Of a stretch of DNA of 64,000 bases, positions 13,933-14,199 are shown piece after piece. The DNA is from Escherichia coli. Its GTDB lineage: Bacteria > Pseudomonadota > Gammaproteobacteria > Enterobacterales > Enterobacteriaceae. The stretch is from the NCBI RefSeq assembly GCF_003334405.1, contig NZ_QOWM01000001.1; one strand, written 5' to 3'. The notes under the pieces were generated by a model. That model searched no databases and had not been told where the DNA came from. It saw only the letters and a program-made list of their open reading frames with translations. How positions within the stretch are numbered: the stretch's first letter is position 1; each line of letters starts with the position of its first letter. The position numbers and the translations under genes are program-made.

Positions 13933-14199
13933 ATGGAATGGCTGGTCAAAAAATCGTGCTGCAATAAACAAGATAACAGACATGTACTTATGCTCTGCGA
14001 TGCTGGCGGCGCGATAAAAATGATCGCCGAAGTGAAGAGTGACTTCGCCGTGAAAGTGGGGGATTTACTCTCGCCTTTGCAGAATGCGCTTTATTGTATT
14101 AATCGTGAAAAGCTGCATACGGTGAAAGTCCTCTCGGCAAGCAGTTATAGCCCCGATGAGTGGGAACGGCAGTGTAAAGTGGCAGGGAAAACTCAGTAA
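13933..14199 (+). CDS. pmrD: PmrD, connector protein of the PhoPQ-to-BasSR signalling link
   Basis: 88-aa product from internal Met of the 98-aa ORF ([10 protein letters not shown]...); 3' end overlaps arnF 3' end by 7 bp. Confidence 0.85.

Follow-up and report, generated by a model that had tools for sequence, protein, structure and literature searches.

Overlapping tail-to-tail junction of pmrD and the arn operon in Escherichia coli: missing spacer, read-through up to Rho-dependent termination and the question of cross-regulation

The pmrD-arnF junction of E. coli

The window analysed here is the whole stretch of 64,000 nucleotides (64 kb) of E. coli DNA, in which pmrD and the arnBCADTEF operon face each other tail to tail. 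PmrD is a connector protein: its gene is activated by PhoP, the protein keeps PmrA phosphorylated, and PmrA in turn activates arn. Lipid A modification and resistance to polymyxin/colistin are under the control of this PhoP-PmrD-PmrA pathway, and the strength of the link that PmrD forms between the two systems in E. coli is debated. The features of the locus are given below in window coordinates.

menE, ending at 13823, + strand: gene directly 5' of the pmrD intergenic region
13824..13932, + strand: menE-pmrD intergenic region with the pmrD promoter, lying 260-370 nt past the arnF stop for a polymerase on the - strand
13933..14199, + strand: pmrD coding sequence (CDS), 88 aa (translation; RefSeq annotation of identical sequence; PF11183 in homologues)
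14197-14199, + strand: pmrD stop TAA, preceded by the codons AAA ACT CAG
14193..14199, both strands: 7-bp CDS overlap TCAGTAA (direct reading of the sequence)
complement of 14193-14195, - strand: arnF stop TGA, preceded by the codons CAA CGT TAC
14579..14193, - strand: arnF CDS, 128 aa, final gene in arnBCADTEF (translation and RefSeq annotation)
14914..14579, - strand: arnE CDS (annotation), the 3' part of which lies under pmrD-strand antisense transcription
16563-14911, - strand: arnT, one of the last three genes of arnBCADTEF

The assignment of the two genes as pmrD and arnF, made in an earlier note on this DNA, agrees with their translations and with the RefSeq annotation, and the 7-bp opposite-strand overlap described in the same note is confirmed by direct reading of the sequence and by RefSeq. 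On the pmrD side, the overlap comprises the last base of a Thr codon, Gln88 and the stop. On the arnF side, it comprises the stop, Tyr128 and the last base of the Arg127 codon. The same overlap is annotated by RefSeq in MG1655 itself and in a 100%-identical K-12 derivative, and the identical overlap is annotated in five other E. coli strains with 95.6-98.8% identity (O157:H7, IHE3034 and three others). Moreover, the region is present nearly full-length in 5405 of 5426 complete E. coli genomes. Except for a few scattered differences, the window corresponds to NC_000913.3 2323471-2387470 read as reverse complement, and the differences closest to pmrD-arnF are at 3732 and 15476. Approximately ten single-base differences from MG1655 are found in the first 54 kb, and from 54194 on the two sequences diverge (an indel or a different segment), so that the DNA comes from a close relative of MG1655 within K-12 and not from MG1655. 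The window contains nine convergent gene pairs, among which arnF-pmrD is the only one that overlaps; in the remaining eight, 38-199 nt lie between the genes.

Conservation of the junction across lineages

The PmrD homologues were aligned, and loci from reference genomes and assemblies were compared. The junctions found in the different lineages are as follows.

E. coli and Escherichia sp. MOD1-EC7003: 7-bp overlap TCAGTAA
E. albertii: 7-bp overlap TCAGTAG
Salmonella enterica, arizonae and diarizonae: 6-bp overlap TCATGA
Citrobacter amalonaticus, farmeri, freundii and youngae: gap of 2-9 nt

The overlapping bases are not conserved between lineages. The PmrD tail past Trp77 (W77) and the ArnF tail past the IFLP motif and last membrane helix vary in both sequence and length. 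None of the Escherichia, Salmonella or Citrobacter lineages compared has room for a hairpin at the junction. As judged from these alignments, the conserved trait in the three genera is the missing spacer and not the overlap itself.

The comparison also bears on the correctness of the annotation. A wrong stop or frame, with the two genes in truth non-overlapping, would be conceivable, as mis-annotation occurs for small genes like pmrD and alternative pmrD start sites are discussed in the literature. However, that uncertainty concerns the start of pmrD and not its stop, both frames are open without a break up to the stops given above, and the E. albertii, Salmonella and Citrobacter orthologues have their ends only a few codons away from these positions. 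An annotation artefact thus has a negligible probability and appears to be effectively refuted by the comparative data.

More distant PmrD homologues are placed differently. Two of them, with the N-terminus MEWWVKKV, lie upstream of amn, the AMP nucleosidase gene, on the same strand and with no arn or men genes nearby (loci L026, 2001-3823, and L027, 630-1936). The pmrD primers used for K. pneumoniae CG43 encode the same N-terminus, and amn is thus the neighbour of the Klebsiella-type pmrD. This suggests that pmrD was separately placed or relocated in the Klebsiella-type lineage. The tail-to-tail arrangement with arnF is accordingly confined to Escherichia, Salmonella and Citrobacter.

Several genomes carry rearranged forms of the locus. 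In E. coli SCPM-O-B-8794 (NZ_JAATUR010000019.1; locus L005, 2501-5255), the whole arn operon is missing. Homology ends at window position 14260, so that only 66 nt from the 3' end of arnF remain, and the genes directly after pmrD are ais, nudI and yfaZ. PmrD has 90 aa in this strain and a changed C-terminus, …KSANNVVLQ. Escherichia sp. MOD1-EC7003 (locus L004, 3019-3031) has a deletion equivalent to window 14451-15889, by which arnE is lost entirely, arnT for the most part and arnF in its 5' portion; pmrD and the 7-bp junction are kept. In Intestinirhabdus alba (locus L012, 2501-3614), menE and pmrD are followed by an ais-like histidine phosphatase gene without arnF, and pmrD persists in this species without an adjoining arn operon. 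In addition, several well-populated clusters of truncated PmrD (P0044, P0048, P0052 and P0055; length 55-63 aa, identity 85-100% where they match) come from E. coli and Shigella assemblies, indicating recurrent inactivation of pmrD.

Termination and read-through on the two strands

Four further features concern the ends of the two transcription units.

14200..14656, + strand: untranslated 3' extension of the pmrD-strand RNA, antisense to all of arnF and to the arnE 3' end (Adams et al. 2021)
14560..14639, + strand: candidate Rho loading (rut) site, C-rich and G-poor, C/G = 2.67; the rut role is putative
13933..14192, - strand: zone entered by arn-operon read-through, antisense to the pmrD CDS (geometry and no terminator-like site)
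14285..14300, - strand: hairpin CTTCCCGGCTGGGAAG followed by GGACTTTTTC, inside arnF in the codons for LPGWEG (terminator scan)

Both stops lie inside the shared 7 bp, and complete pmrD and arn mRNAs must therefore overlap; likewise, no full-length mRNA can end ahead of the overlap on either strand. The earlier note was right that no terminator hairpin separates the two genes, a trivial point given the missing spacer, and the scan places none after either stop. In the consensus scan of 13300-15300, no terminator-like site was found 3' of the pmrD stop on the + strand or 3' of the arnF stop on the - strand, where the interval from 14192 to 13300 is free of such sites. The five weak sites that the scan returned, against 2.5 expected by chance, are all inside coding sequence. 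A bidirectional intrinsic terminator, with a stem-loop and A/T tracts between the two stops, has no intergenic space to occupy. The flanks of the junction show no folding excess over shuffled sequence (z = 0.20 and 0.02 on the two strands), and a scan of 13000-15500 against the known RNA families of Rfam gave only one chance-level match. Similarly, when the loci of Salmonella, C. freundii and E. albertii were scanned for terminators, they gave no excess over shuffles and no site shared between them.

The hairpin at 14285-14300, a six-pair stem followed by GGACTTTTTC in the - strand scan, might be read as a weak intragenic or bidirectional terminator or as a polymerase collision site, which would set both 3' ends and insulate the two units. 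E. albertii has the same stem followed by a T-rich tail on the + strand, and stem-loops are reported to place polymerase collisions between convergent genes. Such a role is nevertheless very improbable. The hairpin lies 86-107 nt before the arnF stop, and a - strand transcript ending at it would carry a truncated arnF; the stem and the T run are 4 nt apart. Of 13 aligned orthologues, 9 have the two central pairs disrupted and none shows a compensatory change, the hairpin is missing in Salmonella, and no Term-seq 3' end is reported at the site. Moreover, the Leu-Pro-Gly-Trp-Glu codons account for the stem. The hairpin was rejected as a terminator or collision site on the grounds of its missing covariation, its disruption in most orthologues, its explanation by codons and its position ahead of the arnF stop, and is treated as a probable by-product of coding. 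The systems of Wang, Watters, Ju and Liu (bioRxiv 2022, 10.1101/2022.10.23.513370) resemble the present locus in being convergent pairs at which opposing polymerases are forced to meet. They use an intergenic stem-loop, whereas pmrD-arnF has neither the space nor a conserved stem-loop.

Published data are available for the pmrD strand. Adams et al. 2021 (eLife, PMC7815308) identified Rho termination regions by direct RNA sequencing with and without bicyclomycin, and their supplementary file 2 lists a Rho region at MG1655 2372815 (-), classed as antisense to arnE. The read counts 800 nt upstream and downstream of this position were 163 and 26 without bicyclomycin, and 298 and 310 with it, giving a Rho score of 6.5 (p = 2e-21). 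The score is computed over 800-nt windows and is coarse, so the peak position is approximate. By coordinate mapping, the position corresponds to window 14656 on the + strand, 457 nt beyond the pmrD stop. Transcription of the pmrD strand therefore crosses arnF into arnE and is stopped there by Rho, and the claim of the earlier note that pmrD read-through would be antisense to the arn operon is borne out.

The composition of this RNA agrees with Rho-dependent termination, which is typified by read-through that rises with bicyclomycin, as in the published table for the pmrD strand only, and by untranslated upstream RNA that is C-rich and G-poor. The pmrD-strand read-through RNA has more C than G throughout, and its top stretch, 14560-14639, lies just 5' of the mapped Rho region. 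The C/G ratio of this stretch exceeds the 99th percentile (2.31) of all 80-nt windows on both strands of the 64-kb window, and its GC skew falls to -0.32. The pmrD-strand site shares bicyclomycin-sensitive termination on untranslated C-rich antisense RNA with the other regions of Adams et al. 2021; it is an ordinary listed member of the Rho-suppressed antisense and read-through transcription described there (PMC7815308), from which it does not differ materially.

All the transcript data were obtained in LB or M63, media that induce neither arn nor pmrD. In the curated Term-seq list of Adams et al. 2021, obtained from LB/M63 cultures in which arn was not induced, there is no 3' end on either strand in MG1655 2372600-2373799. 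The SMRT-Cappable-seq supplements contain no entry for the genes of the pmrD/arn junction.

The source of the pmrD-strand signal should also be considered. Between menE and pmrD (13824-13932), the scan found no terminator-like site and Adams et al. 2021 report no Term-seq 3' end, and read-through from the men operon is possible because nothing of either kind separates the two genes. The pmrD-strand signal in LB may thus derive partly from men-operon read-through and not from the pmrD promoter. Transcripts of the men operon may run into pmrD and then into the region antisense to arnF. In E. coli O80:H26 EC-107 (locus L030, 153-850), an IS1A separates menE from pmrD, the locus being identical in all other respects; the insertion falls in the pmrD promoter region, equivalent to window ~13824-13932.

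On the arn strand, read-through into pmrD follows from the geometry, and its extent is estimated from composition only. Past the arnF stop, the arn-strand RNA is untranslated and has a C/G ratio of 1.1-1.7 over the ~260 nt antisense to pmrD. It is then G-rich over the region of the pmrD promoter, ~300 nt downstream, and again much richer in C than G (2.64) antisense to the menE 3' end.

Excludon-type overlap and the case for feedback

The overlap of arnF and pmrD is already known, being annotated and catalogued without mechanistic follow-up. ExcludonFinder (Sanmartin et al., NAR 2025, PMC12288877) lists arnF-pmrD among the 165 convergent excludons of MG1655, a set that holds the pairs found in >=50% of 58 MG1655 RNA-seq sets, and the text of that paper singles out arnF-pmrD as a functionally related, same-pathway pair. 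The method sets transcript boundaries by RNA-seq coverage (PMC12288877); as the coding sequences overlap, any coverage-based method will call arnF-pmrD whenever both genes are expressed. A convergent excludon consists of tail-to-tail neighbours on opposite strands with overlapping transcripts. Here, pmrD lies on the + strand and arnF on the - strand, and the overlap of their transcripts is given by the geometry, the published pmrD-strand data and the catalogue listing. The pair thus resembles the ExcludonFinder excludons as adjacent opposite-strand genes with overlapping 3' transcript ends. It differs from most of them in that their overlap is confined to UTRs, across a short intergenic region with a mean of 95 nt, whereas the arnF and pmrD coding sequences themselves overlap. 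A working excludon is defined by reciprocal expression and RNase III processing, which arnF-pmrD may or may not share. A second convergent pair of the PmrA/PmrB circuit, pmrR-basS, is also in the ExcludonFinder E. coli list (PMC12288877) and lies outside the window.

PmrA boxes were searched for with the pattern YTTAAK-N5-YTTAAK. One lies upstream of the arn operon.

21642..21658, - strand: PmrA (BasR) box CTTAAGGTTAAGTTAAT (pattern search, 1 mismatch), ~80 nt upstream of the arnB start

From the established knowledge of the arn/pbgP promoter, we take this box to be functional. It drives transcription towards pmrD, which is 7.4 kb distant. No PmrA box was found upstream of E. coli pmrD in 13824-13932 with up to 2 mismatches, so that the mark of Salmonella-type promoter feedback, a PmrA box upstream of pmrD, is missing in E. 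coli. The same pattern search finds the box ATTAATGTTAGGTTAAT upstream of Salmonella pmrD (locus L014, 2399-2415). In Salmonella enterica, PmrA represses pmrD by binding its promoter (Kato et al. 2003, as cited in PMC2565834 and PMC3140997), and Chen et al. 2011 describe the PmrA-to-pmrD loop as absent in E. coli. Klebsiella pmrD is reported not to be repressed by PmrA. This result is uninformative on convergent interference because the Klebsiella-type pmrD adjoins amn and not arn, and Klebsiella was dropped as a natural test of such interference for that reason.

With a probability of roughly 0.6, the locus is best explained as a spacer-less tail-to-tail junction at which both units end inside the CDS of the other through Rho, with cross-regulation as a modest side effect. 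Complete pmrD and arn mRNAs must each run into the opposite gene for want of an intrinsic terminator, and Rho-dependent termination would act on the untranslated C-rich read-through RNA. On the pmrD strand, as the published data show, the polymerases proceed for ~450 nt across arnF into arnE and then meet the bicyclomycin-sensitive stop beside the strong stretch with C>G. On the arn strand, we infer that Rho probably halts most polymerases within or shortly past pmrD. The resulting excludon-type overlap would allow head-on collisions and sense/antisense pairing when the PhoP-dependent promoter of pmrD and the PmrA-dependent promoter of arn fire. The arrangement would be a consequence of pmrD directly adjoining the arnF 3' end in the lineage of Escherichia, Salmonella and Citrobacter. 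The short variable protein tails would drift, and Rho would keep the overlap limited, so that no terminator would be needed. The variability of the PmrD and ArnF tails fits such drift rather than selection on the overlapping bases. In our reading, any cross-regulation is minor and incidental, and the junction is not a device made for feedback. As a counterpoint, selection for transcriptional coupling could also account for a junction that has stayed without a spacer in three genera.

The earlier note had raised a built-in feedback between the PmrA-activated operon and the connector gene. As a functional excludon, the junction would let arn-driven polymerases or RNA collide or pair with pmrD transcripts and lower PmrD, closing a negative loop in which PhoP raises PmrD, PmrD raises PmrA activity, PmrA raises arn, and arn lowers pmrD. 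In the reverse arm, PhoP-driven pmrD read-through would damp arnE and arnF, tuned by Rho. Both arms belong to one reading, which is possible but rather unlikely. It gains from the facts that the transcripts do overlap, at least where they come from pmrD, and are catalogued as overlapping, that pmrD and arn stand in one circuit, and that the spacer-less junction is kept in Escherichia, Salmonella and Citrobacter. In addition, as E. coli pmrD has no PmrA box, convergent transcription is the only cis route evident at the locus by which PmrA could reach pmrD. Against it, the literature search gave no expression result in favour, the PmrA-to-pmrD loop is called absent in E. coli, and the Salmonella loop is promoter-based. 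The pmrD level under active PmrA in E. coli was sought in the Chen/Goulian preprint and in the Shigella pmrD preprint, neither of which gives it. In the p19 study, in which RNase III-cleaved double-stranded RNA was captured with the p19 protein, pmrD, arnF, arnE and arnT are missing from the ten supplementary files, which cover LB, where arn is uninduced. Moreover, the overlapping bases and both protein tails are unconserved, the extent of the antisense RNA is limited by Rho on the pmrD strand, and damping of arnEF by pmrD would oppose the purpose of the connector.

A more specific form of this idea is that the E. coli junction itself is the feedback device that replaces the PmrA box. Antisense RNA from arn would then lower PmrD by collision and/or RNase III, and pmrD read-through, gated by Rho, would trim the flippase genes arnE and arnF. 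We regard this as improbable on the present analysis. It would share with the Salmonella loop attributed to Kato et al. 2003 a negative feedback of PmrA activity on the connector PmrD. The Salmonella loop works through PmrA at a promoter box, whereas the E. coli proposal would work through convergent transcription with no box. If true, the same circuit logic would be realised by two different mechanisms in sister genera.

If convergent transcription measurably coupled pmrD and arn, a cis-acting layer would be added to the textbook circuit, and the coupling would account for the limitation of PmrD in E. coli, where the PmrA box is missing. On the reading preferred here, of a Rho-limited junction without spacer, the locus is a plain and well-conserved case of two genes that have to end within one another, and a convenient excludon test case in a clinically relevant circuit and not a new phenomenon or kind of element. 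With regard to the expression of arnF in a related genus, SL1344_2272 (arnF) of Salmonella is the sole arn gene in a list of genes whose co-expression with SPI-1 was a new finding from sorted cells (PMC12783615, Table 2).
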